NCBI GenBank assembly: GCA_033286805.1
Contig: GCA_033286805.1_4727.1
Length of the DNA: 64,000 bases
Reading direction: 5' to 3' (one strand)
Source of the DNA: a phage
The translations under genes were made by a program, and so were the position numbers. Below the pieces are notes generated by a model, which did not search any database, was not told the DNA's origin, and saw only the letters and a list, made by a program, of their open reading frames with translations. Positions 1,817 through 43,998 of this stretch are shown here, piece by piece (positions within the stretch are counted from its first letter, which is position 1; every line of letters starts with the position of its first letter).

Positions 1817-1848
1817 TCAAAAGATAACCGGATACCAACGTCATAAAA

Positions 1849-1881
1849 CCTTCCTCCAACCCAACAGGGAAGGAGGAAGGG
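1849..1881. terminator. GC-rich hairpin element CCTTCCTCC-AACCCAACAGGGA-AGGAGGAAGG
   Basis: 9-bp stem read directly; flanked by CATAAAA on the left; 10 nt downstream of the minus-strand stop at 1891. Confidence 0.6.
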
Positions 1882-1890: not shown

Positions 1891-3180
1891 TTATGCTTTT
1901 TCGGTTACAGCGTCGAAGTATTTCGCTGCAGCAAATACAGCATCTGCATATTGACGGTTAGCAACACGGAGGATCTTAGCTGCTAATACTGCACTCAAGC
2001 GTGCCATTTCAGAAATGGCGCTTATATAAGGGCGAACGGTTTCACGATCTGCTTCCGGTAGATTGTCGAGCATACCGTCCCATTTAGTTTTAATTTTCAT
2101 ACCGTTTAGTTTAGCAGTACGTTCGACAGTACTCGTTAAACTTTCGGTCTGGCGGAAATATGCAGGGTCAACAATACGAAATACGTTAAGATACGAAGTC
2201 AGTGCGGCTTTCAATTCGTCGTCGTTATTGAAAATGTTCGCGTTTTCGATATTACCGGTCGCGGTTTCTTCAACTTCGATCTGAATATTCTTCACGAGCG
2301 CGCAGGCCTTAATGGTATCTTTCTCAGCCAAAAGAGCGTCAAGACCTTTAACAACATATCGTTTCCCACCGCTTTCTGGTATTTTGAGTCCTTTTAACGC
2401 AGGCTTGATAGCGTAAATATAATCGTCCAGAATATCGGCAAGTGTCGTCAAATCGGTTAGTTTATTAACTTTCTTGTTAATGTCGTCAGTTTGGAGTAGT
2501 AAAAAAGTGGATGCTTGTGTGGATGCCGCTAACTGCTCAATATGTTTACGAATCTCCAACGCGTTAACCGTTTTTGCGTTAGGGAACATGCTAATCATAT
2601 TCCCGGTCGGTTTATTTAGTTGTTTGATGTGACGCTCGCCTTTATTTACAGCGGTTGCAACATCAGTAATTTTTTTATACGCTACAGCAAGGTTTTTGAA
2701 AAGCAGCTGAATCAGTTTACATAACTGTTCAGCCATGTTCGCAATGATTACCCAAACTGCGTATAACGCTTGCGCAGCGCGTTCTTTAAAGCCTTCCAGT
2801 ACGATAGCTTGCCCTTCCACCAAACGATCGTCAGCTTGGAACATGTCTTCATCAGACATCCCCAGGTTTGCTGCTGACGTCGAAGCAATCTGACGGATAA
2901 GGGCGATGTCGCTCGCACGTGCTTCAGGGATCGTAGGTGCGATCATGTACGCGGTATCTTCCAGCGTTGCTGAGGTACGCACCGCAATTTCAGCCAGTTC
3001 GCTGGATTCATCGATTGTCTCGTCGGTACGTCGAATCACCAACTCAACTTCGTCCTCTTCGATTTCTGCGTTGGGATCATTTTGCTCCGCTGGAATTGCC
3101 GCAAGAAGATCTTCGGCGCTGAGCAGTGCGAGTTCGAATGCGTTTTTATTGACGTTATCAAAAAGAGAGATGCGGGCCAT
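1891..3180 (-). CDS. putative virion/internal protein, paralog family member
   Basis: 429-aa ORF, ATG with SD; central motif RLVEGQAIVLEGFKERAAQA paralogous to the 3190-4506 product. Confidence 0.7.
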   Translation of the reverse strand: MARISLFDNVNKNAFELALLSAEDLLAAIPAEQNDPNAEIEEDEVELVIRRTDETIDESSELAEIAVRTSATLEDTAYMIAPTIPEARASDIALIRQIASTSAANLGMSDEDMFQADDRLVEGQAIVLEGFKERAAQALYAVWVIIANMAEQLCKLIQLLFKNLAVAYKKITDVATAVNKGERHIKQLNKPTGNMISMFPNAKTVNALEIRKHIEQLAASTQASTFLLLQTDDINKKVNKLTDLTTLADILDDYIYAIKPALKGLKIPESGGKRYVVKGLDALLAEKDTIKACALVKNIQIEVEETATGNIENANIFNNDDELKAALTSYLNVFRIVDPAYFRQTESLTSTVERTAKLNGMKIKTKWDGMLDNLPEADRETVRPYISAISEMARLSAVLAAKILRVANRQYADAVFAAAKYFDAVTEKA

Positions 3181-4506: not shown

Positions 4507-4554
4507 GTGTTGTCTCCAGTAATGATTCAAAAGATAAACCTGAGCGGCATAGAA

Positions 4555-4586
4555 CCCTCTCCCAACCCGTCAGGGAAGGGAGAGGG
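4555..4586. terminator. hairpin element CCCTCTCCC-AACCCGTCAGGGAA-GGGAGAGGG
   Basis: Perfect 9-bp stem; flanks CATAGAA and AATATG; between the stop at 4609 and the start at 4506. Confidence 0.65.
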
Positions 4587-4608
4587 AATATGTCAGTTTA
4601 TTAACTGA

Positions 4609-5931
4609 TTACTGCTGTGCTGCGTCAGCCGGTTTCTCAGCCGCCTGGCCGCCGTACTCTTTCAGCATTTTAGCAACGCCATCCAGGACAGCGTTACCTG
4701 CCTGAACACCGTATTTCATCAGACCGGTCTGCGGGTTCACGTAGCAGGAACGTGCGTCTTTCAGCGCAGACAGTACAGCTTGAACACGCTGTTTTTCCTG
4801 AGCGGAAACTTCGCCTTTCTTAGACAGATCGGCTTCCATATCGTCACCGAATTTAACAGCGTCTTTGAAGCCCTGGGATTTCTTACCGATGTTGCCTTTC
4901 AGCGCCAGCAGTTTGTCAGCCAGTACTTCAACACCGCTAACCGCAGCAGCCAGCTGGTTCAGGGACAGGACGGTAGCTTCAACTTCTTTTGCTTCGCCGG
5001 TGCGTTCCCAGGTTACTTTACCATCGTTGGCTTTGAAACCCCAACCTGCCGGACCAGCAACGTCAGCAATCGCCGGAGCGTTCAGTTTATCAGCGTACTC
5101 GGTGTGAGATTTAGCAACAACGGTACCAACGAATTTATCAGCGCGATCGTCAGCAGCCTTCATTGCTTTCTCGAAGGTGTCAGCGATTTTGGTCGCGCCG
5201 GTAACCAGATCGTCGCCACCGATGTAGCCAGAAACGCCGCTACCCAGTTTAACTTTGGTATTTTTAGCAGCGCCTTTACGTTTGGCGATCATTTCTTTCA
5301 GTTTAGCGGCACGTGCTTTCAGCTTGGTTGCGCCGTCGAAGATACGATCCATGAACTTCACGAAGGTTTCCCAGGAAGTCTTCAGGAAGTTCTTGATGGT
5401 TGCCCACAGTTTCTGCCACCATTTTTGTTCTTCCAGGAAGATCATGTTGGTTGCATCGTAGCGGGAAGCGGAACCACCGAAGCTTTCGAAGGACGGCATG
5501 GTTTCCGGCAGTTTGAAACCGATAGTACCGCACAGACGTTTCAGATTACGCATGTGTTCCTGAGCGGTTTGTGCAGACATACCACCGTCTTTCAGGTAGC
5601 TTTCGGTTGCAACAACGGTTTCCGTCAGTTCATCCATGGCTTCGTCCATGGCTTCTGCGGTTTCGTCGTCTTTTGCAATTTCGATAACAACAGCATCAAC
5701 CTGCTCGATATCACCACGAACTTCGATAGCCAGTTCGGTTTCAGCTGCGGTATCTTCAGCGATTTCAGCACGTTCGGTCAGTTCAGCCACAACGGTTTCA
5801 TCCGCTGGTGCAGCATCAGCTGCCGGTTCTGCTTCAACGGTTGCCGCTGCATCCGGATCGATCTCAGCAGCCAGTTGAACCAGCTGTGCGTTAGATGGAT
5901 TTGCGACAAGACGATCAAAAATAGAAGGCAT
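4609..5931 (-). CDS. putative virion protein with acidic Ala/Glu/Asp-rich N-terminal region
   Basis: 440-aa ORF, ATG with AAAGGAAAC SD; the antisense 390-aa ORF is Cys/Phe-rich and was rejected. Confidence 0.7.
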   Translation of the reverse strand: MPSIFDRLVANPSNAQLVQLAAEIDPDAAATVEAEPAADAAPADETVVAELTERAEIAEDTAAETELAIEVRGDIEQVDAVVIEIAKDDETAEAMDEAMDELTETVVATESYLKDGGMSAQTAQEHMRNLKRLCGTIGFKLPETMPSFESFGGSASRYDATNMIFLEEQKWWQKLWATIKNFLKTSWETFVKFMDRIFDGATKLKARAAKLKEMIAKRKGAAKNTKVKLGSGVSGYIGGDDLVTGATKIADTFEKAMKAADDRADKFVGTVVAKSHTEYADKLNAPAIADVAGPAGWGFKANDGKVTWERTGEAKEVEATVLSLNQLAAAVSGVEVLADKLLALKGNIGKKSQGFKDAVKFGDDMEADLSKKGEVSAQEKQRVQAVLSALKDARSCYVNPQTGLMKYGVQAGNAVLDGVAKMLKEYGGQAAEKPADAAQQ

Positions 5932-12808: not shown

Positions 12809-12830
12809 AACAAAAATAGCATGAGCATAA

Positions 12831-12862
12831 CCCTCCTCCAACCCGTCAGGGAAGGAGGAGGG
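12831..12862. terminator. hairpin element CCCTCCTCC-AACCCGTCAGGGAA-GGAGGAGGG (bidirectional)
   Basis: Perfect stem between convergent genes (plus gene ends 12808, minus gene ends 12872). Confidence 0.7.
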
Positions 12863-12871
12863 AATATGTTG

Positions 12872-15800
12872 TTATCTTACGTTACTGCTATTCTGCTGTT
12901 CGCTGAACCAACCGTACACCTTGAGATCGGTACCATATCTCAGTGCGATATACGCATTCAGCGCAGCACAGAACAAAGACGCGAATGCCCATATCAGCGA
13001 AGGATCAACATCTTCCGTTACCACTGGGAGAGTATTATCCGGTTCCCATGATGGAGAACTGTCCATGAACGTCGTGTACCATTCCCGCCGTTGTTCTTCA
13101 GTGGTAAAGTCGCTATGGGGTTCCAATGCTTCTTTTGCCAGACGTCGATATTCGAACATATGCGTTGCTAAAGCCGATGAGTTACCAGATTCGCCTTCAT
13201 AGTTCGGATCCACCGCATAACAGAGTTCTGTGGAATCTAACAAAGCGACCGCCTGTGTGATGCTGTCGGCAGTGCCTGCACCATAGAGCTCGATAGACCG
13301 CGAGAGCTTCTCACAGAACGCATTTAACGCGGCAGGATTGGACACCTGAAGGTCAAGGCCTAATGTCCACGGATAGTTACTGAATACACCCGTAAACCGC
13401 GGCATAACACCCAACAGATGTTGTCCGATTACAGCACGGTTATAAACAGCCCGGTTATAGACTTGAAACGCAGCCTCCAGGGCTTGGTTATAATGACGAC
13501 GAAGTTCATCACGCGTGTTGCGGAACCTGTTTGCCGCGAGACTTGTGGCTGCAACGCTACAAACATCGTAATTGGTGGACGAGAGCACAACCTCGTTAAG
13601 ATCGAACGATTCCTGTTTCAATGTTCCGCTAACAGCTGCCGCTTCGCTGTTCGCTTTATCGACAACTGTACTCAAAGCGTTGATGTAACGTTTAGCTCGG
13701 ACCTCCAACCATTGTGCGATGCCGAGAATATCCACCGCAGCTTTAGCAAGATCGCGTGCATTCACGATTTCGTTCTTCAACGCCCCTAAACCTTTATTTT
13801 CAGGCGATGAGGCTTGTTGACGAATCATGCTGTTCAACATGGTAAGCAGATTATCCAACTCATGTCCGCTGACCTTGTTACGCGCATCGGTAATCGGCCC
13901 TTGCAGGAATTTACGGCAACCATCGTTGTATCGAATCAGTTTATCCACATCGATAGATTCGTTCGTAGATTCCTTGAACTGATCCTTCAATTCTTCACGG
14001 TAGTCGTGGATTTCACTTGCGAGATTATCGATAGTGATACCGTCATGTCCAAGAAGAACTTTATTGAAGTTACCTTTCTCGAATGCCAGAGCAAGACCTT
14101 CACGAATCTTAGCGAGTTTATCCTGATCGAGTTCACGACCGTTCGATAGCTCTTTCACTTCCGAGCTGATTAATGCCGAAACGTTACCCAGATTGTCGGT
14201 AACTCCTTTGAACGCTCCCGACCAAATCGTTCCTACTTCAGCATATTTCGCAATGGTCTGAATACCGACGGTGTGTAGCGACGCTAAACGTTTCTTCGTG
14301 CCTTCGGTAAGCAGAGCGTCTTTAGCTCGCGTAAGCTGACTGTTATTAGCTTCCGCCTGCTGAATCGCTGCTTTCGCACTTCCATTACGCCAGCTCTTAA
14401 CCAGCCAATCAACCAAACGTTTTAGGATATTGACGGTGTATTCCATTGTCCGCCGTAACGTTTCCCACGCGCTTTCTGCGGTATAGATGCCGTACCCTTC
14501 CATCTTCAACGCTTTCAAGCTTGTTTGACGTGCCAACCATTCTACCGTTGCAGAGCAAACGTTTACTAATGCTTCCAGGTAGTTGTAATAGACGTCTGTT
14601 GCAGTTGTTTCGTTGAACTTTGAATGCAGATAGAACTGATCGTAAAGTTCGTCGTCATCGCCGAAGGCATCATAGTTCCACAGTTCTGTATCACAACCTG
14701 TACCGCAGAAGACGTCAGCTGTCGTAAACTCTTTAAGCGCTTTAGCTGCGTCATTTGTCAGGAATTTACCTGTTTCAACTACATCGTCAACATTAAGCTT
14801 GGGGAGTTCGTCGGTGACTGGCTCTTCCAACATCAGCATATTGAAGAATGTGCTGTACTTGTATCCGAGCCATTTTGGATAACTGCTTTCAGGGATCGTA
14901 GACAGCGGCTTGATTTTCTTGGCTTCAGCCAATGTGTCTTTTGCGACCTGATATTGGTTTTCCCCAGCCTTGACGCGACGTAATGCTTTTTCTTCCAACT
15001 GCTTAAGCTTGGCATGGCGTGCTTGTGCTGGAGCTTCAACAAGTTTTTGTACCGACCGCATTGCAGAAATCGCTTCTTTTAATACGATCATCGGCATACG
15101 AACTTTACCGTCGTCGAAACTAAGAGCGCGAGCGACACGTTTACTTACGACCGGCTTATCATGGATATTTCGTTCCACCCACGATTTGTTTGCGTAAGTT
15201 TGAGCGATCTGCTGTTGGATATTTTCAAGGTATTTCCAGCTGCTGGATGCTTTATTATCCAAAAGCGGATTCGGTCCCTTCTTATCGAAAAGTTTCAGAA
15301 TCGGACCAAAGAAACCTTCCTGTACGAGTTCGATACGCGTGTATCCGTCAGCCGCTTCGATTTCTTCTTGGGTTTTGTCCCAGAGCTGTTCACTACGGAC
15401 AGCAGTAGCTGTTTCAGATACCGACATAACAAGCTCGGCAACAACTTCAGCGCAGGTCAGTACGGTACGCACGCATTGCAGTAGCATACGCTGGTAAACG
15501 ATACGGGCGTTTTGTAAACGTGCGATAACCGCTAAATAACCGATATTGTCAAGACGTTCGTCGGCTTGAGCAGAGTCAACACGTTCTATCAGTTGTTTAA
15601 CCAGCGCGGCTGTTTCCGGATAATCGTTCACGACGTCACGCATAATTCGTGATGCGAAAACCGCGGTACCTAAAACAGTGAGGAGTGTTTTACTATCCCA
15701 TTCTTTTGGTGTCGCTACCGATTCAGTAGGGATGAGATTTCCCGCCTGGTCGAAGTACGGCATAAGGACATTGATATCAGTAGACGGAACAGCAGTAATT

Positions 15801-16477
15801 GCGTTATACTCTTCATCCGCACCATCGTTGCCAGACGGCTGTAATGCAAGTGCTTGTTCAAGGATTTTGCGGTCAGCGGCATAAAGCGCCGACAGAGCTT
15901 GCGTTGCCGCAACCAAATCAACGATCGGCGACCAGAGCTGTGCGAGCTTACCTTCGTATTTCCGTACAGCGATAGCAAGGTCTTCTTTTACGTCTGGATG
16001 ATTGATTAAACCACCCAATGTTTCATGGATGGCAGAAAAACGTTCGGAATGTGCTTGTGTCAACGCGGTAAAATCGTCAACGTACGACGCATTTTCTTCA
16101 AGGCGTGTAAGTTCCTGCTCCAGGAGATCTTTTACTTGCGTAGCAGATGCGTTTCTCAACTGTTCACCGATAATCGCGATGGCTTTATCGACAACGCGAC
16201 AAGCTTCATTGAAGCCGGTTGTTGAAGGTAACTCGGTCCATAATGCCAGCGGCTTACCTTCCATTGCGTCAGGAAGGGAATATGACAACATTGCTAGTTG
16301 TTGACGTGATACCTGTTTGTCACGATGTAATGTTTCTTTCAACGCCAGAAGCTCATCAAGACCCACACTGCTAGGGATCGTGGGATGTGATACAGCGTTG
16401 ATGTTTTCTGCTAATGACTCAAGAACCAATAAACCATTTTCAGCGGAAGATAACCCTGCTTTAAGGTATTTGTTCAT
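12872..16477 (-). CDS. large putative virion/internal protein (1201 aa), paralog family
   Basis: ATG with GGAG SD; contains RIELVQEGFFGPILKLF, related to the motif in the 430-aa paralogs. Confidence 0.7.
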   Translation of the reverse strand: MNKYLKAGLSSAENGLLVLESLAENINAVSHPTIPSSVGLDELLALKETLHRDKQVSRQQLAMLSYSLPDAMEGKPLALWTELPSTTGFNEACRVVDKAIAIIGEQLRNASATQVKDLLEQELTRLEENASYVDDFTALTQAHSERFSAIHETLGGLINHPDVKEDLAIAVRKYEGKLAQLWSPIVDLVAATQALSALYAADRKILEQALALQPSGNDGADEEYNAITAVPSTDINVLMPYFDQAGNLIPTESVATPKEWDSKTLLTVLGTAVFASRIMRDVVNDYPETAALVKQLIERVDSAQADERLDNIGYLAVIARLQNARIVYQRMLLQCVRTVLTCAEVVAELVMSVSETATAVRSEQLWDKTQEEIEAADGYTRIELVQEGFFGPILKLFDKKGPNPLLDNKASSSWKYLENIQQQIAQTYANKSWVERNIHDKPVVSKRVARALSFDDGKVRMPMIVLKEAISAMRSVQKLVEAPAQARHAKLKQLEEKALRRVKAGENQYQVAKDTLAEAKKIKPLSTIPESSYPKWLGYKYSTFFNMLMLEEPVTDELPKLNVDDVVETGKFLTNDAAKALKEFTTADVFCGTGCDTELWNYDAFGDDDELYDQFYLHSKFNETTATDVYYNYLEALVNVCSATVEWLARQTSLKALKMEGYGIYTAESAWETLRRTMEYTVNILKRLVDWLVKSWRNGSAKAAIQQAEANNSQLTRAKDALLTEGTKKRLASLHTVGIQTIAKYAEVGTIWSGAFKGVTDNLGNVSALISSEVKELSNGRELDQDKLAKIREGLALAFEKGNFNKVLLGHDGITIDNLASEIHDYREELKDQFKESTNESIDVDKLIRYNDGCRKFLQGPITDARNKVSGHELDNLLTMLNSMIRQQASSPENKGLGALKNEIVNARDLAKAAVDILGIAQWLEVRAKRYINALSTVVDKANSEAAAVSGTLKQESFDLNEVVLSSTNYDVCSVAATSLAANRFRNTRDELRRHYNQALEAAFQVYNRAVYNRAVIGQHLLGVMPRFTGVFSNYPWTLGLDLQVSNPAALNAFCEKLSRSIELYGAGTADSITQAVALLDSTELCYAVDPNYEGESGNSSALATHMFEYRRLAKEALEPHSDFTTEEQRREWYTTFMDSSPSWEPDNTLPVVTEDVDPSLIWAFASLFCAALNAYIALRYGTDLKVYGWFSEQQNSSNVR

Positions 16478-21358: not shown

Positions 21359-23110
21359 ATGAGCGAACAAGAACGAAAACCTAAGAAGAAACTGCTCGGT
21401 ATTCAATGTCGACACATCAGCTATAACGAAGCGAACGATGGCAGCAAGAACGACCTCATGATCGCAAAAGAGATCATGTTCTTCGATGATAATACGCAAG
21501 CGACGAATCTTCGCTTCTTCGAGAATTACAAACGTCCGTTTTGGGTGACGGTAGAGAGTAAACGTAAGAACAAATATAAAAAGGAAAGCGAGAAGCTCTC
21601 GCATGTGCGTCGCTATGATGTCCGCCAAAGTGAACTGGTTGAAAAGATCAGTTCGGTGCTTTATAAAAGACGTGCTGATGACAACACCCGTCTACAGCAG
21701 CTTGCACGGAGTCCATACCTCTATGGCACGGACGTTAGCGCCAGCTGTTATTTAAAAACCCAGTACAACACAAAATGGCCGGAATACGTCGATAAATTAC
21801 CCGCTTCCATTGCCTGTTTCGATATCGAAACCGACGTTGTCCACGGGCACGGTAAGATCGTCTGTATGTCTATTACAATGGGATACAATGCGATACTTTG
21901 CTATACCAAGGACTTCGTTGGTCATATTCCGAATGCGATTGAGAAAACCCATGAGAAGATTCGATATTACCTGGCCGAACGTCTGAATACCAAAGAAGAT
22001 CCTCATGCGTTCGAAAAATATCATTACGATGTGCGAATCGTAGAAAGTCCGGCGCAAGCAGTCATCCAGTGCATGCAGAAGGTTCACGAATGGCAGCCGG
22101 ATTATCTCCTTGGCTGGAATATCGCGTTCGATATTCCGCGCATGCTCCAGGCACTGAACGAGGAAGGGTATCGTCCCGAGGATGTTTTCTCCGATCCTCG
22201 TGTACCACCTAAATATCGTATTGCTCGCTGGGTACCACCGAAGACAGACAAGGTATCTGCTTCAGGTCGTAAAACCAACCTTACCCTTGAGCAGACCTGG
22301 CCGATGTTTTATACGATGGCCACATACCAGGTTATGGATGCGATGTGCGGTTATAAGTTCGTTCGTTTAGGAAGACCGGATGAAGGACGCTATTCACTCG
22401 ATGCGGTGTTAGAGCGAAATAAATGCCATACGAAATTAAAAGCGATTCCTGGTACAGAGGGGTTCACGGAGCTTGCGTGGCACGAAGAGATGCAAACGAA
22501 CCATCAAATCGACTACGGCGTATATAACCTTTGGGATAACCAGGGTATCGAGGCGTTGGACCAGAAAACAAAAGACTATTCGATGACCATCCCTATTCGT
22601 TTGGCGGCGTCGGATTTGAAAGATTTCAGTTCTAACCCTAAACGTATCTGTGACAAACTTTTCTTCGTTTATCTTAACCGTGGGGAAGTCATGGGATGCA
22701 CTGCCGACGACATGACCCAGGAAGAAGATAAGTGGGTTATCTCACGAACCGGACATATCGTCACATTACCGTGCGATCTCATGGCGGACAACGGCATTCA
22801 TCTCTTCTGGGATATGCCGAACCTGAGAAGTTATATCCGTCTATTCGTTGCAGACCTCGACATTAGCAGTTCATACCCAAACGGGCAGATCCTGTTGAAT
22901 TTATCCAGAGCATGTGTTTTTCGTGAGCTCTCGCGCATTGAAGGCGTCTCTGACTATCAATTCAGGAAGTTAGGTATCAACTTTATTACCGGAGGTAAAA
23001 CGAACGCTGTAGACTTCTGTAGAATCGTTTATAAAGCACCATCGATGTTCGAACTCTTAGAACATTTCGATGCAACGCGTCCAAAAGGGGAAGCGCGGAC
23101 CATCGAATGA
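21359..23110 (+). CDS. family-B DNA polymerase N-terminal fragment (3'-5' exonuclease domain plus palm motif A)
   Basis: Exo I CFDIETD, Exo II GWNIAFD, Exo III YNLWD, motif A DLDISSSYP; ends ~75 aa after motif A with no motif B or C. No SD before the ATG. Confidence 0.6.
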   Translation: MSEQERKPKKKLLGIQCRHISYNEANDGSKNDLMIAKEIMFFDDNTQATNLRFFENYKRPFWVTVESKRKNKYKKESEKLSHVRRYDVRQSELVEKISSVLYKRRADDNTRLQQLARSPYLYGTDVSASCYLKTQYNTKWPEYVDKLPASIACFDIETDVVHGHGKIVCMSITMGYNAILCYTKDFVGHIPNAIEKTHEKIRYYLAERLNTKEDPHAFEKYHYDVRIVESPAQAVIQCMQKVHEWQPDYLLGWNIAFDIPRMLQALNEEGYRPEDVFSDPRVPPKYRIARWVPPKTDKVSASGRKTNLTLEQTWPMFYTMATYQVMDAMCGYKFVRLGRPDEGRYSLDAVLERNKCHTKLKAIPGTEGFTELAWHEEMQTNHQIDYGVYNLWDNQGIEALDQKTKDYSMTIPIRLAASDLKDFSSNPKRICDKLFFVYLNRGEVMGCTADDMTQEEDKWVISRTGHIVTLPCDLMADNGIHLFWDMPNLRSYIRLFVADLDISSSYPNGQILLNLSRACVFRELSRIEGVSDYQFRKLGINFITGGKTNAVDFCRIVYKAPSMFELLEHFDATRPKGEARTIE

Positions 23111-23158: not shown

Positions 23159-23190
23159 CCCCTCCCCCTGGCGGAAGCCGGAGGGAGGGG
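23159..23190. terminator. GC-rich compound hairpin with flanking T/A runs (bidirectional)
   Basis: CCCCTCCC...GGGAGGGG stem followed by TTTT on plus and preceded by an A-run; between convergent genes. Confidence 0.65.
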
Positions 23191-23208
23191 TGGAGGTTTT
23201 ATGTGTTT

Positions 23209-23655: not shown

Positions 23656-23686
23656 TGTTGCTGTTCCTGTTATAGTCAACATATAG

Positions 23687-23717
23687 CCCTTCCCTAGCCG
23701 TCAAGGCCGGGGAAGGG
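23687..23717. terminator. hairpin CCCTTCCC...GGGAAGGG
   Basis: 8-bp stem flanked by ATATAG and TATG; between paralog genes. Confidence 0.55.
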
Positions 23718-23732
23718 TATGTTTACGTGTAA

Positions 23733-24128
23733 TTACTTTTTGGCGTCCGTTGGTGATTCAGTATGTTTCTCGCTGCTGGTGTACCAGAGTAGGTATGTCG
23801 GGAAAAGATTAACCTCTAAGCTAAACGGGATATTATATTTTTCTTCCATTTTGCAGAGATGTTCTTTAAGTAAATCCCTTGCTTCTTTGTTACGGCGAGC
23901 GGAGTGCCAATGTAGTTCTTCGTTCTCCTTTACCAGTACTTCTACAATGATACGCTGCTCGTGAACCTCGGTTTTCACAATAGCAAGTAAATCGTTACTA
24001 TCGAAACGGGTAAAACGAATGTACGAACCAGGCGTTTTTTCTTGTTTAACGATATCGATCATAGTAGAAATGTGTGGGTGATCGATGTTGTCGTTAACTG
24101 CTTTAACGATGGAATCTACAACGCTCAT
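23733..24128 (-). CDS. small paralog-array protein (divergent member)
   Basis: N-terminus MSVVDSIVKAVN resembles the paralog N-termini; AAGGA SD. Confidence 0.55.
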   Translation of the reverse strand: MSVVDSIVKAVNDNIDHPHISTMIDIVKQEKTPGSYIRFTRFDSNDLLAIVKTEVHEQRIIVEVLVKENEELHWHSARRNKEARDLLKEHLCKMEEKYNIPFSLEVNLFPTYLLWYTSSEKHTESPTDAKK

Positions 24129-27244: not shown

Positions 27245-27254
27245 AGCATAGAAA

Positions 27255-27297
27255 CCTCCTCCCCCATCCTTCAAGAGGACGGTGGGAAGAGGGAGAG
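27255..27297. terminator. imperfect GC-rich hairpin
   Basis: CCTCCTCCCCCATCC...GGTGGGAAGAGGGAGAG directly after the stop at 27299; left flank CATAGAAA. Confidence 0.5.
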
Positions 27298-27298: not shown

Positions 27299-27700
27299 TT
27301 AAATGTCGTGGACGGCAATGCCGTTTAACCAGCAATACAGCTTAACGCGACAGGAATACCGCTTCGTTGCGGCAACCATTTCATCGCGTAAACGCTGGTA
27401 GATTTCATCCTGGTGTTCACGATCAATGGGGTAATCAGCCCAACATTCGATCATGACGTCACCATTCGTCAGAATCGTCGTACGCATCCTGTCCTGGATA
27501 CGGCGGTCTTTCCCGGCATTAGGGAAATACATTCCTTCAGTACGAATAAGGTCGCCGCAGGGCATGACTAACCATTCGTTCGTTTTGCCGGTATTCTTAT
27601 AATCCATTACAGCTTGCATTGCGGTGTCAACGCTAAAAGAAACATAATTCCAAACGGATGTCCAACGATAGATTGCGGGTTGTTCGAGTGTTTCGTTCAT
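27299..27700 (-). CDS. hypothetical protein
   Basis: 133-aa ORF flanked by hairpin elements. Confidence 0.55.
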   Translation of the reverse strand: MNETLEQPAIYRWTSVWNYVSFSVDTAMQAVMDYKNTGKTNEWLVMPCGDLIRTEGMYFPNAGKDRRIQDRMRTTILTNGDVMIECWADYPIDREHQDEIYQRLRDEMVAATKRYSCRVKLYCWLNGIAVHDI

Positions 27701-27754
27701 GGAGTGCTTGTCCTATTTTTATTTTCTGCACAGGATAAATTCAACGGCATAAAG

Positions 27755-27786
27755 CCCTTCCCTGCCCTTATATGGGGCGGGAAGAG
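27755..27786. terminator. hairpin CCCTTCCCTGCCC-TTATAT-GGGGCGGGAAG
   Basis: Flanks CATAAAG and TTTATG; in the 214-bp intergenic region. Confidence 0.5.
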
Positions 27787-27914
27787 TTTATGACCGCAAT
27801 GAGAATCTCTCACGACAAGCTCACGACGATTATCGCATCACCCCGCGAGTGAGGGAGATCAGGATCACCTCCTACGTCGTAACGACAGCAATCCCGTTAA
27901 CGCCACCTTAGGCA

Positions 27915-33939: not shown

Positions 33940-33955
33940 CGCAACGGTAACATAA

Positions 33956-33987
33956 CCCTCTCCCAACCCAGCAGGGAAGGGAGAGGG
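33956..33987. terminator. hairpin element CCCTCTCCC-AACCCAGCAGGGAA-GGGAGAGGG (bidirectional)
   Basis: Perfect stem between convergent genes (33939 and 34005); flanks CATAA and CTTATG. Confidence 0.7.
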
Positions 33988-34004
33988 CTTATGCTGTTAT
34001 GCTA

Positions 34005-34979: not shown

Positions 34980-37592
34980 TTAAGCGTCCGGCGTAAAATC
35001 AAAAGGAATGTCCGTACGAATGATATCGTAACGTTTTCCTAGGAAATAAAACTCTTCGGGAACCTGACCAGGAATAATGCTATCGCCGATGAACTGCGGA
35101 TACGCCCAGATGTACTGAGTGAGTCCTTCGAACATATCCAGGTTATTTGCATGGTTACCCATGATACGTTTCCAGAGTTCGCGTTTATACGGTGTTTTAA
35201 CATCGAATCCATAAAGCGGTGCAAGATCTTCACCAGGAACAAATCCCAGGTAATAATGGATCTGACTAACCGGGAAACCAAGCGTATCTCGCGGAATGGT
35301 GATCGCTTGCTCTGCCTTGGTGACATGCGTCTCAATAATCCAGTCGTAGCACTCCGAATAGAACCGGTCGAATTTCTCTGGGTTATACCACGCTTTGGGA
35401 AGATTGAGTTTCTCCGTGAACGCGTTCGACATGATCGTCGGCAAGAACGGAAGAACACCGGTTTTGATCTGCGTGTATTTCGATTTTACCCGATTAACCA
35501 AATTCCAGCAACTGTATCCTAACTGTTCGTTACAAAACTCAACGTAGAGATCGTAGTCACCACCGGATAATGGGTTGTTAATATCACCGATGTCTGCGGC
35601 ATATTTGTTGGGATATCGGTTATTGAAAGCCAGTTTGGTTTGGTAATCGTAGATACACGGTTTGTTGTTCGCTGTATTGATCCACCACCAGGGTTCACCT
35701 ACTTGCACACAAATGTCCTGGACATGGGGGTAGATGATATCAGCAAACGCGGTTAACACATCCCCTAACCACGCCATCGCCTGTTGGTTACATGGAGACA
35801 GCAACCAGGACGGTGGTGTGTATCCGGTTGCTGCGATGTTTCCTTCCCAATCCTGCTGCGCCCACTCGAACGGGCAGGCTGTACTCATCAATTCGTAACT
35901 TAAACTGATGGTGACAGAGAAATGGTGTTTTGCGGCGTATGCAGCGAAAGCTTCATGCCATGCGATACAGGGTGGATTTAATACATCCGTGGTGTTCACC
36001 AGTAACTTACCTGCACTTGGCGTCCAGACAGTATCGTAGAAATGCGACATTCCAACATAGTGCACTAATTCATCCTGATATCCAGCATAAACCAGGTTTT
36101 CAAATACACGCTCTGGCGTGATGTTGTAATGGTCATCATAAGCGGTTATCGCACGAAGTTCGTGTGGCGTACAATGATGGCGATTAACCGTCATTTCCTG
36201 ATACACCCCATCGATAGGAAGAATCTCGAGGGTTAAACCAAGATCGATCGGTGTTTCCAGATAGGTCGTTTCTGTAGCACCTTCTTTATAATGTCGAGAA
36301 CTCATGCTGAACATCAACGACGTTACCGATTCGAGTTCGATAGGCTCGTCAGCATAGAACCCCGCCATTGCGTCATTGAAATCGATCGTTACGATTGCGC
36401 TTCTACCGTCTTCAGAGACATCGGTGGCGTATCGGGTTAATGAGATATACTGACGGCTATCGTCTTTGTGTACGACGGTTAAAACCGGCGGGTTTTCGGT
36501 ATCTGCAAAGTTACGCTGATCGCCAGTAAACGTGATCTTCGCTTTAAAGATCAAACCGAATAACGACGTCATGGGATCATACGCAATACAACCGTGATCC
36601 AGCGTATCCGTTGTCCGCCATTCTATCCCGACCAACCCGTTAGCGGTATGGCATCGCATATACGCATTAAGGACCATGTCTTCACTGACAACCGCGAAGT
36701 TCTCTGTTGACTGACCGTTGATAATCCAATACATCGGTTGCCAGAGGTTACGCGTACCTTTTGCGTAGCGGTAGGTTGGCGCGCCTTTAGGGTTGCCGTT
36801 ATTAAGATGGAATACAGCAGTACCTTGATAATGGTCGTTCGTATTAATCGGAACACTGTAAGCATCACCGAGATCCGTACGTTCCACCTTCTTGACTGTT
36901 GCGTTTTCAAATAACCCACGCAGCGCGGGTAAACCGATATCATCAGGCGCGTTTTCTCGACGAATCGCATCCGCGATGCGGTGGGCTAGGGCGGGGTAAA
37001 TGGTCTCACCCTGTTGTAGGTTTGCAAGACCTACAAAGCGATCGGGAGCGATGCCAGCAATCAATAACTCAACATCACCCTTCGTTCTATCGTCATTAAG
37101 ATATTTCAGTCCGGTAAGGTCAAGATGCTGAATAAGCGACAACAGGTTGTATTTACGGTTTTCAACAGTTAGTACAAGATCGCCTGCCCAAACCAAACTT
37201 CCCTCATCCGCTGTTACTTTAACGGATTGTCGGCCTGTGGTAGACGTTGTTGTCGTTTTATTTAATTGTCCTTGTAGGAAGTCGGTTGCGAGGTCAAAGG
37301 CAATACCGTAACGGTCAGCGACCGCTTGCATGATTTCACGTAACTGGGTATCTTCTTCAATGATAATCTTGACAGGTATTCCCAAGAACGCTTTAGCGAG
37401 GTCTCGTTTAACCAACGAGACGAATACGGATTTGTAGTATCGGCTTCCATCTTTCCCTTTAAAAAGAATGGAGGTTGTTTCGGGTGCCGATAGAACACGT
37501 GCAAATACAACATCGTCGGAAGTAAGAGAAAGTCCGTTTTTCTCGTTGACCAATCTTAGTATTTCATTTTGCGCGGTTTCATGTAACTTCAT
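34980..37592 (-). CDS. putative tail fibre/tailspike-like protein (870 aa) with shared N-terminal domain
   Basis: N-terminal ~110 aa (RDLAKAFLGIPVKI) paralogous to the 43326-43853 and 47669-48499 products. Confidence 0.55.
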   Translation of the reverse strand: MKLHETAQNEILRLVNEKNGLSLTSDDVVFARVLSAPETTSILFKGKDGSRYYKSVFVSLVKRDLAKAFLGIPVKIIIEEDTQLREIMQAVADRYGIAFDLATDFLQGQLNKTTTTSTTGRQSVKVTADEGSLVWAGDLVLTVENRKYNLLSLIQHLDLTGLKYLNDDRTKGDVELLIAGIAPDRFVGLANLQQGETIYPALAHRIADAIRRENAPDDIGLPALRGLFENATVKKVERTDLGDAYSVPINTNDHYQGTAVFHLNNGNPKGAPTYRYAKGTRNLWQPMYWIINGQSTENFAVVSEDMVLNAYMRCHTANGLVGIEWRTTDTLDHGCIAYDPMTSLFGLIFKAKITFTGDQRNFADTENPPVLTVVHKDDSRQYISLTRYATDVSEDGRSAIVTIDFNDAMAGFYADEPIELESVTSLMFSMSSRHYKEGATETTYLETPIDLGLTLEILPIDGVYQEMTVNRHHCTPHELRAITAYDDHYNITPERVFENLVYAGYQDELVHYVGMSHFYDTVWTPSAGKLLVNTTDVLNPPCIAWHEAFAAYAAKHHFSVTISLSYELMSTACPFEWAQQDWEGNIAATGYTPPSWLLSPCNQQAMAWLGDVLTAFADIIYPHVQDICVQVGEPWWWINTANNKPCIYDYQTKLAFNNRYPNKYAADIGDINNPLSGGDYDLYVEFCNEQLGYSCWNLVNRVKSKYTQIKTGVLPFLPTIMSNAFTEKLNLPKAWYNPEKFDRFYSECYDWIIETHVTKAEQAITIPRDTLGFPVSQIHYYLGFVPGEDLAPLYGFDVKTPYKRELWKRIMGNHANNLDMFEGLTQYIWAYPQFIGDSIIPGQVPEEFYFLGKRYDIIRTDIPFDFTPDA

Positions 37593-37614: not shown

Positions 37615-38256
37615 TTAAATGTACTGCTTACCGCCCACGAAGGAAGTTAACCAGTTCCCGCTGACGAGTTGTGATACCCAGCCTGGAACGGCTCTACCAT
37701 TCTGGCTCATGATGTTACCACACCAACCAGGGAATCCGGGACGGATGTAATAGAAAGTTAAATTGTAGAGATGGCAATTCCATACCGCAACGTTATGTTT
37801 ACCAGAAACCGCTTTAAAGACAAACGCGACAGGTAACGGAGACGATAACAATTCGGTCACAGGGACGGCTGACCAGTTCGCATTCGCGTTCCATGGCTGC
37901 CAGGTATGGCTACGCGAGTCACCGTTAACGTTACCGTTGCTACCGCGTCCGCCCGCGTTCCACCATAGCGACGGACTCATGTTCTTAAGTGAGGTAAATT
38001 GCTGTGGTGGAATATTCGGAATGATAACAGGGTTGGTACCTTGTCCGTGTTTCTTTTCTTTTGCGTTCACATACCCGCTTATCGATTCCAGGTATTTGGT
38101 ACCAGGATAATTGTTCTGGACTTGTGTCGCAATATCACGAACGTCGAACGTCCAGCAGATCATGGTGTTGTAGTAAGCGTCGGTGTTATCGTGCCATGAG
38201 TTACCATCTTGTAAACGTGCGCCGCTATTCGGTGTTTTATCTGTGCTTATAGCCAT
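37615..38256 (-). CDS. hypothetical protein, possibly tail-fibre associated
   Basis: 213-aa ORF with Trp/Gly/Asn-rich segments, next to the fibre module. Confidence 0.5.
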   Translation of the reverse strand: MAISTDKTPNSGARLQDGNSWHDNTDAYYNTMICWTFDVRDIATQVQNNYPGTKYLESISGYVNAKEKKHGQGTNPVIIPNIPPQQFTSLKNMSPSLWWNAGGRGSNGNVNGDSRSHTWQPWNANANWSAVPVTELLSSPLPVAFVFKAVSGKHNVAVWNCHLYNLTFYYIRPGFPGWCGNIMSQNGRAVPGWVSQLVSGNWLTSFVGGKQYI

Positions 38257-38438
38257 GGTGTTGTCCTATACGTTGGTGGTTGAGGTGGCGGATATCGGAT
38301 GCGTGTTGTCGTCAGGTAATACATACAGAAACGCCCACTGATAAAACAGTAGCTTCTTTTAAATGGAATTTAGATATCGCGTATTTCTACCTCGTTTCTA
38401 TTCTCAAAAAGGAAATTTCATACGATGACGCCATAGCA

Positions 38439-38468
38439 GCTCCTCCTTCCCTGACGGGTTGGAGGAGC
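38439..38468. terminator. hairpin element in inverted orientation (GCTCCTCC-TTCCCTGACGGGTT-GGAGGAGC)
   Basis: Same stem and loop as the 12831 element, reverse-complemented; 9 nt past the lipoprotein gene stop. Confidence 0.65.
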
Positions 38469-38476: not shown

Positions 38477-38983
38477 TTACTTACTGATAACCTCAACGGA
38501 GTTGGGATCAGCGATCAATGCACGGTCGGTAGAACAATTGAAGAAGACCGTACCAACACCATCACCGTTCGAGTTCAGGGTTGAACTTGCGTAAGACAGG
38601 GTTGGTTTATTCATGCGGTAGAAGCGTTCGCTGGTTGCGGTATTGAACCCCAGGTCAACGTAGTCTTTCACCGTGGTATACAACTGGGTGGACTCGAAAA
38701 CGGTTACCGGAGAGTCGACGGTAAATTGACTGCCTTCGTCCACAACCAGAACTTTATCGTTCCAGATTTCAGTGGTTGAGAACTTCGGTTTCCAATGTTC
38801 GAATTCCTGGGTTGCACCCCAGCAAGAATACACAGCGAGATTGCTGTTCTTCTCGACAGGTTTCAACCCCACCAGTTGTGTCAGGTCTTTATCCAGGTTC
38901 GGTAAACCTTCCAGCGTAGCACACCCACCCAGAGAAAGCACCATTAGCATACCAAGAACGATCGCGCAAAGTTTCTTTGTCAT
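38477..38983 (-). CDS. putative lipoprotein
   Basis: Signal peptide with lipobox LSLGG-C (MTKKLCAIVLGMLMVLSLGGCAT); GAGGAAA SD. Confidence 0.65.
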   Translation of the reverse strand: MTKKLCAIVLGMLMVLSLGGCATLEGLPNLDKDLTQLVGLKPVEKNSNLAVYSCWGATQEFEHWKPKFSTTEIWNDKVLVVDEGSQFTVDSPVTVFESTQLYTTVKDYVDLGFNTATSERFYRMNKPTLSYASSTLNSNGDGVGTVFFNCSTDRALIADPNSVEVISK

Positions 38984-39024: not shown

Positions 39025-39441
39025 TTACACAGTTGTAGGAAATTCCGGCCAATCGATATTTGGTGCAGCATCGGTATCGACAGCAGTCACCGCATCAGTG
39101 TAATCCAAAACAGCATTAAGTCGGGTCGTTTCTTCCTGAGTCAGTTTTCGCCCAGCCCGTAATTTTAACTGAATAAGATCGATGGAAGCCAGCGCAGAAT
39201 CAATCAAAGATTGTTTTATCTGTTCTGCCTCGGCGACGAGATCTTCGTGTTGCCGCTCGGGTTCCGGAGGTGCGGTAAACTCACCATTTGAGTATGACCA
39301 ACCTATTCCAGGTGACACAGCCTCCTTATCGTCGATATGAACCAACTGCTGATTGTCGAATATATCGAGCTCTGCTTCACCGTCGTAAACAATCGTGTTT
39401 ACTACCACCCCATTTTCAATAACAGCGTATGATGTACTCAT
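39025..39441 (-). CDS. tail fibre assembly protein (Tfa-like chaperone)
   Basis: C-terminal NIDWPEFP resembles the Tfa C-terminus; TAATG overlap with the fibre gene; start moved to ATG 39441 with GAGGAG SD. Confidence 0.7.
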   Translation of the reverse strand: MSTSYAVIENGVVVNTIVYDGEAELDIFDNQQLVHIDDKEAVSPGIGWSYSNGEFTAPPEPERQHEDLVAEAEQIKQSLIDSALASIDLIQLKLRAGRKLTQEETTRLNAVLDYTDAVTAVDTDAAPNIDWPEFPTTV

Positions 39442-43325: not shown

Positions 43326-43853
43326 TTATCCTGGATAAATAGTGATGATATCACCAATGACGGTTGTGGCACCGGCGTAAAGATGAGCCGGAGATACATC
43401 ATGTTGGTTTGTCACAGTAAGATCCAATCGACCACGCCAAACCATGGAGGTATTCGCGATGGGGATAGAAATCTTTTTGGATATATCGTCACGAAAATCA
43501 ATAACAGTGGCAAGGGTAACCGCATCAAAATCAACATCGGGATCAAAGACGAACCCGTATTGATCTGAAATCGCCCGAATAATGGCATGTATAGTTGTTG
43601 TCTCAACAGACTCTAAAACGATTTTTACCGGTATTCCTAAAAATGCCTTCGCGATATCGCGTCGGGCGTAAACGATAAAGCATTCACCGCACCACTTTGT
43701 TCCTTCATTTGCTGTGACGATCACTTTTGCCCTGTTAGCACCAGAACTCCCATCCAAGGTTAATGTAAGATCGGAGTTGCTGAACACGCTACCGTTACGT
43801 TGGTTTATCAACGTAATCAGTTCGTCTTTCCATGGTGGGTAAAGTGAACGCAT
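43326..43853 (-). CDS. hypothetical tail protein with shared N-terminal domain
   Basis: RRDIAKAFLGIPVKI segment; start moved to ATG 43853 with GGAGGAGGG SD. Confidence 0.55.
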   Translation of the reverse strand: MRSLYPPWKDELITLINQRNGSVFSNSDLTLTLDGSSGANRAKVIVTANEGTKWCGECFIVYARRDIAKAFLGIPVKIVLESVETTTIHAIIRAISDQYGFVFDPDVDFDAVTLATVIDFRDDISKKISIPIANTSMVWRGRLDLTVTNQHDVSPAHLYAGATTVIGDIITIYPG

Positions 43854-43894
43854 AAGCGCACCCTCCTCCAACAATCAAATTAAGATATATAACT

Positions 43895-43998
43895 CCTCGA
43901 AACCAAAGTGCGATTCGAGGTAAGCGTAAACAGTCCAGACGACCGCATAAAATTCCGCGCATATTACCCCTCTACCCCGACAAAGCGAGATAGAGGGG
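43895..43998. terminator. two hairpins (CCTCGAA...TTCGAGG and CCCCTCTA...TAGAGGGG)
   Basis: Inverted repeats at 43895-43920 and 43967-43998 in the 184-bp intergenic region. Confidence 0.5.

Follow-up and report, generated by a model that had tools for sequence, protein, structure and literature searches.

The 64,000-nucleotide stretch of phage DNA analysed here (the window) contains 13 hairpins of very high stability in which the 5' arm consists solely of pyrimidines (CCYCC type) and the 3' arm of purines. As judged from their sequence, these elements are the Goslar-lineage version of the C-rich hairpin-TTATG terminators of phiKZ, a kind of signal that is already known. The window is syntenic with Escherichia phage Goslar, a jumbo phage of the phiKZ-like, nucleus-forming type, at 91-97% identity. 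By analogy, the elements very probably act as factor-independent terminators, as in phiKZ-like (Chimalliviridae) phages that have their own multisubunit RNA polymerases; this function would carry over from phiKZ and 201phi2-1, two phages whose proteins show only a distant relationship, and the mechanism in the window phage would be intrinsic. In phiKZ, the motif BCCYCCCC-HWWD-GGGRRGG-B-YTTATKYYGT describes 61 terminators defined by ONT-cappable-seq 3' ends (Putzeys et al. 2024, PMC10914365), and the same motif was recovered as motif A in phage 201phi2-1 (PMC11512511), with the qualification that 3' ends mapped in these two phages do not by themselves separate termination from trimming to a protective hairpin.

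A scan of the window for perfect GC-rich stems with a 5'-arm pyrimidine fraction of at least 0.85 recovered ten, all of them intergenic, and the imperfect elements at 27255, 27755 and 63421 showed the same arm polarity and were likewise intergenic. All 13 elements are hence intergenic and none falls within coding sequence, which occupies ~93% of the window; the similar motif frequency inside coding regions that the initial annotation had named as an argument against its own reading was not observed. An energy-threshold folding scan (50-nt windows, -14 kcal/mol) gave 280 matches and was set aside in favour of the stem-composition scan as too unspecific, and a scan of the entire window against Rfam matched 0 families at the gathering score. 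Hairpins were present at every coordinate given in the initial annotation, with corrected stems at 1849 (CCTTCCTCC) and 38439 (GCTCCTCC); the looser CCCTTCC-type hairpins at 23159, 23687, 27255, 27755, 43967, 50435 and 57299 were confirmed, and a further element was found at 63421-63454. The strict pattern CCCTCYYCC-N-GGRRGAGGG had three matches compared with 0.00 in shuffles. Across the window elements, stems are 7-9 bp long and loops 5-16 nt, often with a nested CCC/GGG mini-stem. A sub-family with the loop AACCCNNNNGGGAA, whose 4-nt tip varies (AACA, GTCA, GTCA, AGCA), comprises the hairpins at 1849, 4555, 12831 and 33956 and, in inverted form, that at 38439. In these five copies the loop has the form AA-CCC-NNNN-GGG-AA, in which a 3-bp stem nested within the loop is capped by a tetraloop. 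At least five copies share an almost identical 14-nt loop, which is not explained by a need for stability alone. A second motif candidate, ATATAACNGTACGC, lying beside hairpins at 16534 and 48615, had three matches compared with 1.7 expected and was rejected as not significant.

The elements mostly lie 5-22 nt past the upstream stop codon, with larger distances at 43967 (60 nt) and 27755 (130 nt), and occupy all three of the convergent junctions at 12808/12872, 23110/23209 and 33939/34005, in agreement with the placement past stops and between convergent genes that had been noted initially. At the first of these, the focal element (12826..12868, both strands) consists of CATA(A) at 12826-12829, a hairpin at 12831-12862 and TATG at 12865-12868, and separates a plus-strand gene ending at 12808 from a minus-strand stop codon at 12872-12874. 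Its hairpin comprises 9 bp, an AA/AA internal loop, 3 bp of CCC/GGG and the tip GTCA; the element folds at -31.8 kcal/mol on the plus strand and -28.6 on the minus strand (z -6.0 and -4.3), and the loop tip is the sole difference from its Goslar orthologue. The element at 33951..33993 (both strands) has the same arrangement, with CATA(A) at 33951-33954, a hairpin at 33956-33987 and TATG at 33990-33993 between a plus-strand gene end at 33939 and a minus-strand stop at 34005, and the counterpart of this hairpin in the Goslar GenBank record (93445..93476) is annotated as a 'putative transcriptional terminator'. The third (23159..23203, plus strand) has a hairpin at 23159-23190 (CCCCTCCC/GGGAGGGG, inner stem) and the plus-strand tail TGGAGGTTTTATGTG with TATG at 23200-23203, between the end of a DNA-polymerase-like plus-strand gene at 23110 and a minus-strand stop at 23209; its minus-strand flank has a T-rich run and no TATG, and homology to Goslar stops at 23199, at this element.

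The remaining ten elements lie at tandem junctions, and three of them carry tails on both strands. The element at 4548..4592 has a hairpin at 4555-4586 (CCCTCTCCC/GGGAGAGGG) with the minus-strand tail TTCTATGCCG (CATA 4548-4551) and the plus-strand tail AATATGTCAG (TATG 4589-4592), and is situated 22 nt past the stop of the minus-strand gene 4609..5931 and ~42 nt upstream of the next minus-strand start at 4506 (Goslar annotation). That at 23680..23721 (hairpin 23687-23717, CCCTTCCC/GGGAAGGG; tails CTATATGTTG on the minus and TATGTTTACG on the plus strand) is found 15 nt after the stop codon of the minus-strand gene 23733..24128, and that at 27748..27792 (hairpin 27753-27786; tails CTTTATGCCGTTG on the minus and AGTTTATGACCG on the plus strand) lies ~48 nt upstream of the minus-strand gene start at 27700. 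The other seven are oriented on the minus strand. The element at 1842..1880 (hairpin 1849-1880, CCTTCCTCC/GGAGGAAGG, of the AACCCNNNNGGGAA loop family) has the tail TTTTATGACGTTGG with CATA at 1842-1845 and no TATG on its plus side, 10 nt beyond the stop codon of gene 1891..3180; that at 27247..27292 is an imperfect hairpin (27255-27292) with the tail TTTCTATGCTGTTTT, 6 nt past the stop of 27299..27700; and that at 38432..38468 (hairpin 38439-38468, the flipped member of the loop family) has the tail TGCTATGGCGTC, 8 nt past the stop of 38477..38983, and is the first element in a 220-nt region upstream of the genes 37615..38256 and 34980..37592, the latter being capsid-like. The element at 43960..43998 (hairpin 43967-43998, CCCCTCTA/TAGAGGGG) has the tail TAATATGCGCGG, and that at 50429..50459 (hairpin 50435-50459) has the tail TTTATGCTGTTAAA, 14 nt past the stop of 50474..50971. 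The element at 57294..57318 (hairpin 57300-57318, CCCTCCC/GGGAGGG with a 5-nt loop; tail CTTATGCCGAT), which is the nearest to the phiKZ form within the window, lies 5 nt past the stop of 57324..57752 with the next start 20 nt downstream, and that at 63415..63454 is an imperfect hairpin (63421-63454) with the tail GTTATGCTGATG, 17 nt past the stop of 63472..63957.

The flanking tail tracks gene ends. CATA was found 1-4 nt left of the stem in 12/13 elements, equivalent to a minus-strand TATG 0-5 nt after the stem (binomial p = 5.8e-20; background 0.34% per position), and a plus-strand TATG within 5 nt of the stem in 5/13 (p = 3e-7), with further plus-strand copies at 9 nt at 23159 and 13 nt at 43967. 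The initial description of a hairpin followed by TATG on each strand is accordingly accurate for the minus strand but holds, given the plus-strand count, for only about half of the elements. At convergent junctions the tail is present on 5/6 flanks (plus-strand TATG within 5 nt at 2/3), compared with 3/10 antisense flanks at tandem junctions, where seven elements are sense-only; the proposal that the elements are bidirectional is therefore retained for the convergent junctions and the three tandem sites with TATG on both sides, but not for the seven sense-only sites. Additional Goslar DNA displayed the same tracking of gene ends by the tail. Alignment of 18 window flanks on TATG gave T at -1 in 10, Y at +4 in 15, Y at +5 in 16, G at +6 in 11 and T at +8 in 12, and TATG ends in a G that hardly varies. 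These 18 flanks and 12 phiKZ flanks have the tail consensus T-TATG-Y-Y-G-T-T in common. As a perfect palindrome is identical on both strands, direction would be set by the flank that bears the tail. Exceptions to this sense-strand rule exist within the family: a 50-kb sample of phiKZ contained two tandem hairpins with TTATG on the antisense flank only.

Stable folding was predicted for the hairpins both alone (-13.5 to -27.6 kcal/mol) and with flanks (z-scores -2.9 to -6.7). In four tandem elements the sense strand was 4-7 kcal/mol more stable owing to G·U pairs, as for the minus strand at 27255 (7 kcal/mol); the minus strand at 43967 was also 7 kcal/mol more stable, and an antisense advantage never exceeded 1 kcal/mol. 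Structure was conserved, with 98.8% of cells paired, double changes at 5/12 pairs and 0/500 shuffles reaching this level, and at the 33956 site two relatives carry the stem CCCTCCTCC/GGAGGAGGG, a double compensatory change. Three loops are inverted between the window and Goslar while the stems are intact, with the loop at 23687 the exact reverse complement of the Goslar copy and that at 50435 flipped relative to Goslar, which fits a structure-only requirement for the hairpin. The compensatory stem changes and sense-strand G·U pairs are evidence for the elements being transcribed RNA hairpins. A separate hairpin at 16493 also has compensatory stem changes. The promoters of the phage N4 virion RNA polymerase, with a 5-7 bp stem and a 3-nt loop, are recognised as extruded DNA hairpins, and resemble the present elements in that a palindrome adjoins a possible start site in a phage with its own polymerase; however, that polymerase is single-subunit, the window stems are much longer and lie at gene 3' ends, and the sense-strand G·U pairs point to pairing in RNA rather than in DNA.

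The correspondence with phiKZ terminators extends to the pyrimidine 5' arm and purine 3' arm (13/13 window elements), the T-TATG-YYG-T tail directly after the stem (12/13 sense flanks), the intergenic position past genes and the two-sided CATAA ... TTATG layout between convergent genes, in a phage of the same family that likewise has its own RNA polymerases. The same layout was seen in phiKZ DNA, for example at the convergent junctions GGCATAAACCCCTCTCC-GCAT-GGAGAGGGGCTATG and AACATAATGCCCTCCC-ATTAC-GGGAGGGCTTATG. Further afield, Salmonella phage SPFM16, Erwinia phage Ea35-70 and Vibrio phage pTD1, which have only 26-32% protein identity to the window, show a C-rich hairpin and TTTAT at the orthologous convergent junction, which follows the gp87-like gene; in Ea35-70 it reads CATAAG ... 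TTTATGCCG. The terminator reading of the initial annotation is thus supported by the match of stem polarity and 3' tail to the phiKZ motif, by the position past stops and by the Goslar annotation of 33956-33987. There are also differences from phiKZ, in which the stem is 8 bp with a tetraloop and the tail position K is G or T, whereas in the window stems of 7-9 bp enclose loops of 5-16 nt and the corresponding G hardly varies. The tetraloop HWWD that closes the stem in the phiKZ consensus was not seen in this position in the window. As the loop given in the consensus is a description, this mismatch is read as a lineage variant of the hairpin and not as grounds for excluding the elements.

Canonical intrinsic terminators are similar in having a GC-rich RNA hairpin followed by a U-containing stretch, and some are bidirectional at convergent genes, but they differ from the window elements, which have a fixed-sequence tail with a conserved G and strict arm polarity. 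Without a U-tract after the stem, the elements fall outside a rule of at least five T in eight, and those at 1849, 4555 and 12831 were not reported by a consensus terminator scan of positions 1-20000. Canonical terminators also occur in the window, e.g. at 26658-26675 (minus strand, T8), and sigma-70-like sites in the consensus scan were fewer than in shuffles. In the most likely mechanism, a very stable RNA hairpin, with an all-pyrimidine CCYCC 5' arm and an all-purine GGRGG 3' arm, would be followed directly by a short, U-rich fixed tail, (Y)UUAUG-YYGU(U), that substitutes for the long U-tract of ordinary bacterial terminators, with release of the polymerase inside the tail, ~5-9 nt past the stem. 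Tails on both flanks (CATAA-hairpin-TTATG) would make the element at convergent pairs a two-way terminator, and at most tandem junctions a tail on the sense flank only would confine termination to that direction.

The tail of the putative terminators coincides with a promoter element. The core of the late promoters of the phiKZ non-virion RNA polymerase is TATG, with G at +1 (PMC4666361; PMC12809450), as the initial annotation had correctly stated; the beta-like subunit binds positions -3 to +1, the TATG, as single-stranded non-template DNA (PMC12809450), and there is no conservation downstream of TATG in these promoters (PMC4666361). It is possible, though doubtful, that the two signals are combined, such that the hairpin ends one transcript and the adjoining TATG (G = +1) is a start site of the non-virion polymerase. 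Such a role would be compatible with termination as an added function by which tandem junctions insulate and restart transcription. In its favour, TATG with G at +1 is the necessary core to which the beta-like subunit binds, and six tandem TATGs lie 20-52 nt upstream of the next start, a normal leader length and a plausible distance by comparison with the phiKZ late promoter P119L (~47 nt), with which the TATG is identical. Further, the 220-nt region, the only sizeable intergenic one upstream of the block ending in the capsid-like gene 34980..37592, opens with the 38439 hairpin and TGCTATGG, which resembles TTGCTATGT of P119L. Sense TATG is also ~3-fold enriched in tandem intergenic DNA (23 vs 9 antisense), although several of the 23 are mere start codons.

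However, a co-directional downstream gene is present at the ten tandem junctions and absent for the five TATG-bearing convergent flanks, at which TATG is nevertheless kept and initiation would yield antisense RNA only. The conservation past TATG (YYGT(T)) is that of a phiKZ terminator and not of a late promoter, P119L has no upstream hairpin, and upstream of phiKZ orf143 a terminator tail, TTATAA, and a separate GCTATG stand 8 nt apart. Because TATG goes with the ends of genes and persists even where there is no downstream gene, a promoter role is unproven, though conceivable at tandem junctions, and the suggestion in the initial annotation that TATG may double as a promoter is unsupported as its main function. 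BLASTP of phiKZ gp123, the TATG-binding subunit, against the ORF 28567-29868 and two RNA-polymerase-like ORFs of Goslar gave no match, gp123 homologues being extremely divergent.

A further, speculative and rather unlikely proposal is that the terminator tail and the late-promoter core form a single signal, recognised by one pocket of the phage polymerase. A polymerase that has transcribed the hairpin and UUAU would present TATG in the register in which the beta-like subunit binds it; this binding may pause the enzyme 5-7 nt past the stem, allowing the hairpin to free the RNA without a U-tract, and the same G could then be a transcription start at tandem junctions, while at convergent ones it would give rise to antisense RNA. 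If true, a shared pocket would help to account for the conserved G in the tail and for the 4-nt promoter being 'necessary but not sufficient'. No discussion of the overlap between terminator tail and late promoter was found in the literature searched, a scope that stopped short of Ceyssens et al. 2014.

Use of TTATG as a translation start appears from the sequence to be confined to a half copy of the element at 43851..43872 (minus strand), which consists of GTTGGAGGAGGG (the 3' arm and loop edge of the 12831 type), TGCGC and TTATG, without a 5' arm. GTTGGAGGAGGG has just two exact matches, at 12831-12842 and at 43861-43872, each of them on the minus strand, and three matches were found when up to one mismatch was allowed (0.12 expected). 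The ATG of the half element (43853-43851) is the start codon of the minus-strand gene 43326..43853, which fits the length of Goslar gene 00091, and the earlier suggestion that a truncated copy provides the Shine-Dalgarno sequence for the 43853 start is plausible given the GTTGGAGGAGGG match followed by TGCGC and TTATG. Mini-ORFs starting at the ATG of TTATG were considered as a general reading of the elements because GGAGG, 6 nt and ATG resemble a ribosome site; this reading was rejected, since the two examples examined by eye were only 7 codons long and the purine arm is taken up by base pairing within the hairpin.

An improbable alternative to termination is that transcription reads through and the hairpins protect or process RNA 3' ends, either by blocking 3' exonucleases or through endonuclease cleavage of the AU-rich tail, which would leave stable 3' ends at the stem. 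Hairpins of -13.5 to -27.6 kcal/mol directly after stop codons and the missing U-tract would suit this, and published 3'-end maps would look the same under either process. An exonuclease block, however, does not call for 9-10 nt of conserved sequence after the stem, and the orientation of the tail follows the direction of transcription at convergent junctions. The same tail is moreover conserved among Pseudomonas, Escherichia and Erwinia phages, which implicates machinery of the phage itself. Highly improbable is a selfish REP- or MITE-like palindromic repeat that spread through the genome with no role in transcription, as suggested by at least five near-identical copies in both orientations with more in Goslar and two related metagenomic contigs, by the almost identical copies at 1849 and 4555 beside paralogous genes that are only 18-29% identical, and by the hairpins carried at the edges of non-homologous blocks. 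Against it, all 13 elements have Goslar counterparts (12 colinear, while that of 23687 falls within a rearranged block), and their inverted CATAA/TTATG flanks are not the direct repeats of a target-site duplication. The elements are found strictly at the 3' ends of genes, carry a strand-specific tail and have G·U pairs on the sense strand, and the same motif marks RNA 3' ends in phiKZ. No presence/absence polymorphism of the elements was seen between the window and Goslar, and in an IMG/VR scan with CCAACCCNNNNGGGAAGG, which gave mostly single chance matches, multiple copies were confined to Goslar and a pair of Goslar-like contigs of 237.5 kb and 182.9 kb.

The elements themselves are ordinary for the phiKZ-like phage family, and their reading as terminators provides a practical rule by which a C-rich hairpin with TTATGYYGT, oriented by the flank that carries the tail, marks the ends of transcription units in Goslar-like phages, for which the public Goslar annotation covers just 1/13 sites. 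The phiKZ terminator grammar is retained on both sides of a very deep divergence within the family (protein identity ~30%), and its tail coincides with the TATG core of the late promoter. If one pocket reads both, then termination, pausing and initiation would be linked in these sigma-less polymerases, which would bear on how a 4-nt promoter achieves specificity.

Each hairpin named in the initial annotation was present at its site. A scan for perfect GC-rich stems recovered ten hairpins with a pyrimidine-rich 5' arm, all intergenic, and the imperfect members at 27255, 27755 and 63421 are likewise intergenic, giving 13 elements that all lie between genes in a window that is ~93% coding. Folding energies of the hairpins by themselves range from -13.5 to -27.6 kcal/mol, stability with flanks is well above that of shuffles (z -2.9 to -6.7), and in most cases 5-22 nt separate the upstream stop codon from the element start. 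The observation is genuine and far above chance. On the minus strand, TATG lies 0-5 nt past the stem in 12 of 13 elements (p = 5.8e-20 against 0.34% per position as background), and on the plus strand in 5 of 13 (p = 3e-7), with two more at 9 and 13 nt; the initial description of TATG on both sides holds for roughly half of them. Hairpins occupy all three convergent junctions (12808/12872, 23110/23209 and 33939/34005), with TATG after the hairpin on five of six flanks. Among the ten tandem minus/minus junctions, all have TATG on the sense flank and three have it on the antisense flank. The same flank pattern was observed in a further 32 kb of Escherichia phage vB_EcoM_Goslar outside the window. 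By these counts, TATG goes with a gene that ends upstream on the strand in question and not with one that starts downstream. Alignment of 18 window flanks on TATG further revealed a longer conserved tail, T-TATG-Y-Y-G-T-T.

Goslar, a phiKZ-like, nucleus-forming jumbo phage, was the sole megablast match to window 9000-17000, and whole-window comparison showed colinearity with Goslar 59.2-125.1 kb in blocks at 91-97% identity, interrupted by a small number of indels and of segments that have been replaced. After Goslar, the best relatives of one window protein were only ~33% identical. The phiKZ terminator motif, 5'-BCCYCCCCHWWDGGGRRGGBYTTATKYYGT-3', was obtained from ONT-cappable-seq 3' ends and marks 61 terminator regions; six regions located between convergent genes are bidirectional (PMC10914365). 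It is the same as motif A of 201phi2-1 (PMC11512511) and shares with the window elements a 5' arm of pyrimidines, a 3' arm of purines and then YTTATG-YYGT. Within 50 kb of phiKZ DNA, intergenic regions hold, for example, GCCTTCCC-TCAG-GGGAAGGC-TTTATGTCGT, convergent junctions hold GGCATAAACCCCTCTCC-GCAT-GGAGAGGGGCTATG and AACATAATGCCCTCCC-ATTAC-GGGAGGGCTTATG in the CATAA-hairpin-TTATG layout seen in the window, and the extended tail of 12 phiKZ flanks is that of the window flanks. Salmonella phage SPFM16, Erwinia phage Ea35-70 and Vibrio phage pTD1 have, at 26-32% protein identity, a syntenic counterpart of the convergent junction 3' of the gp87-like structural gene (9815-12808), and in all three it bears a hairpin that is C-rich in its 5' arm and has TTTAT after it. 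The Ea35-70 junction reads CATAAG ... TTTATGCCG, and the SPFM16 and pTD1 tails (TTTTATTT or TTTATTT) have no G, so that the tail core is a U-rich TTAT, with a strong preference for the G in the Goslar, Ea35-70 and phiKZ lineages.

The elements are very probably factor-independent terminators of the phiKZ type, serving the phage's own polymerases; we infer this function here from the 3' ends mapped in phiKZ and 201phi2-1. The hairpin, stable and of C-rich/G-rich polarity, would precede a short fixed tail, UUAUG-YYGU, standing in for a long U-tract, and the flank or flanks bearing the tail would decide between one-way and two-way termination. The initial proposal of bidirectional terminators is supported by the phiKZ motif match, with bidirectionality upheld only where both flanks carry the tail. 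A canonical promoter/terminator scan of 1-20000 did not pick up the elements there (1849, 4555 and 12831), which lack a T-run, Rfam returned no match in the window, and the public Goslar record labels one of the 13 a putative terminator. In window 1-20000, sigma-70-like promoter matches were scarcer than in shuffled sequence (16 vs 26.6 ± 5.2), which fits with host-polymerase-independent transcription, and nearly all window genes lie on the minus strand.

Alignment of the AACCC-NNNN-GGGAA sub-family (14 copies from the window, Goslar and two Goslar-like metagenomic contigs) was 98.8% paired, with double (compensatory) changes at 5 of 12 pairs, a result matched by no shuffle; in two relatives the 33956 orthologue has CCCTCCTCC/GGAGGAGGG in place of CCCTCTCCC/GGGAGAGGG. 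In tandem elements 27255, 43967, 50435 and 63421 the sense strand is more stable by 4-7 kcal/mol because its G·U pairs become A·C mismatches on the other strand, and no element has an antisense advantage above 1 kcal/mol, a pattern characteristic of a hairpin in transcribed RNA and not of a DNA cruciform. The convergent-junction stems at 12831 and 33956 are perfect Watson-Crick and functional as a fold on either strand, and in that at 23159 each strand forms one G·U pair.

The TATG core initially named for phiKZ late promoters is correct: its G is +1, it is necessary but not sufficient, and nothing is conserved past it (PMC4666361). Within window genes TATG occurs 198 times in sense and 103 in antisense, a sense-strand frequency at which it cannot suffice alone as a promoter, in agreement with the biochemistry (PMC4666361). 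Promoter activity is not supported as the main role, given the YYGT tail and the convergent junctions, and a dual role may exist at tandem junctions. That the same TATG also starts transcription there is possible but unlikely. In its favour, six TATGs stand 20-52 nt from the next start codon, as is usual for a leader, and the 220-nt region 5' of a two-gene block ending in a capsid-like gene opens with hairpin 38439 and then TGCTATGG, a sequence resembling the phiKZ reference late promoter P119L. A main role as promoter is opposed by P119L itself (TTGCTATGTAG), which lies in a divergent region with no upstream hairpin, by the TATGs retained at convergent junctions, by their terminator-like YYGT extension and by a phiKZ case, 5' of orf143, in which the terminator tail TTATAA and a distinct GCTATG stand 8 nt apart. 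In the promoter complex, a pocket of the beta-like subunit holds non-template TATG, positions -3 to +1. A polymerase fresh from hairpin-UUAU would have TATG in promoter register, 5-7 nt past the stem, where its recognition could produce a sequence-specific pause allowing the hairpin to terminate without a U-tract. That this pocket reads the terminator-tail TATG and so causes the pause is speculative, and no discussion of such an overlap was found in the literature searched.

A role in 3'-end protection or processing instead of termination is improbable, as it leaves unexplained a conserved downstream tail common to phages of differing hosts. A selfish REP/MITE-like repeat is highly implausible, given that every copy has a Goslar counterpart (colinear in 12 of 13), that the flanks are inverted and not direct, and that placement is strict with strand-specific features. 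Elements 1849 and 4555, which follow the second and third of three adjacent minus-strand genes (440-4506; 433, 429 and 438 aa), are nonetheless near-identical despite the 18-29% identity of these distant paralogues, and a 14-nt loop is common to at least five copies, suggesting some sequence selection or exchange between copies beyond stability. At 23687-23717, 48585-48615 and 50435-50459 the loops are reverse-complemented relative to Goslar (~95% identical), with the same stems and flanks (TAGCCGTCAAGGCCG vs CGGCCTTGACGGCTA; TTTTTAG vs CTAAAAA; CGCCTTACGCA vs TGCGTAAGGCA, one mismatch). Spacers between the inverted arms appear to invert frequently, a process with which the flipped 38439 copy is also consistent.

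Goslar homology ends at terminator hairpin 23159-23190 (23159-23199), and the next 1.75 kb (23200-24950) has no Goslar counterpart save a 66-nt island comprising hairpin 23687 and the adjacent gene leader, which places terminator hairpins at the edges of swapped gene modules. Elsewhere, a 1.78-kb Goslar insertion (81186-82967; site at window ~22854-22874), encoding the NUMOD1/HNH homing-endonuclease-like protein Goslar_00069 within the DNA-polymerase exonuclease-domain gene, is absent from the window, where a 583-aa ORF (21359..23110) is uninterrupted. Window 14507-16179, inside a 1201-aa ORF (12872..16477; Goslar counterpart 930 aa), has no Goslar match, which makes it a large indel or replacement in a structural-region gene. 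The tail-fibre-like gene 39441..43319 (1292 aa) contains diverged internal repeats (40092-41921) that cross-match several positions in its Goslar homologue at 65-84% identity.

Further intergenic hairpins form a second set outside the TTATG class: canonical minus-strand terminators at 26658-26675 (GGTGGGGTTCGCCCCACC then T8) and 48585-48615 (tail with T11), a hairpin without tail at 16493-16523 that adjoins the next ribosome site and shows several compensatory changes relative to Goslar, one at 53341-53360 with variant tail TTTATACCG, and others at 44035-44055 and 50066-50102. The 100-nt leader between element 1849 and the start at 1741 (1742-1848) has two further hairpins, 1767-1788 (a putative terminator in the Goslar annotation) and 1794-1816, and may serve as a leader with regulatory function or as a short RNA akin to those reported in phiKZ 5' UTRs. 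The only two exact matches to GTTGGAGGAGGG, at 12831-12842 and 43861-43872, are on the minus strand; the latter lacks the 5' arm and precedes TGCGC-TTATG, whose ATG (43853) matches the start of Goslar gene 00091. This site can reasonably be read as a degenerate half element recruited for ribosome binding, and the truncated copy initially proposed there is plausible.

The elements are a real, cleanly organised feature of known type, newly recognised in the Goslar lineage and with a lineage-specific hairpin shape, and the candidate overlap of terminator tail and promoter core adds slightly to an otherwise moderate-to-low interest.
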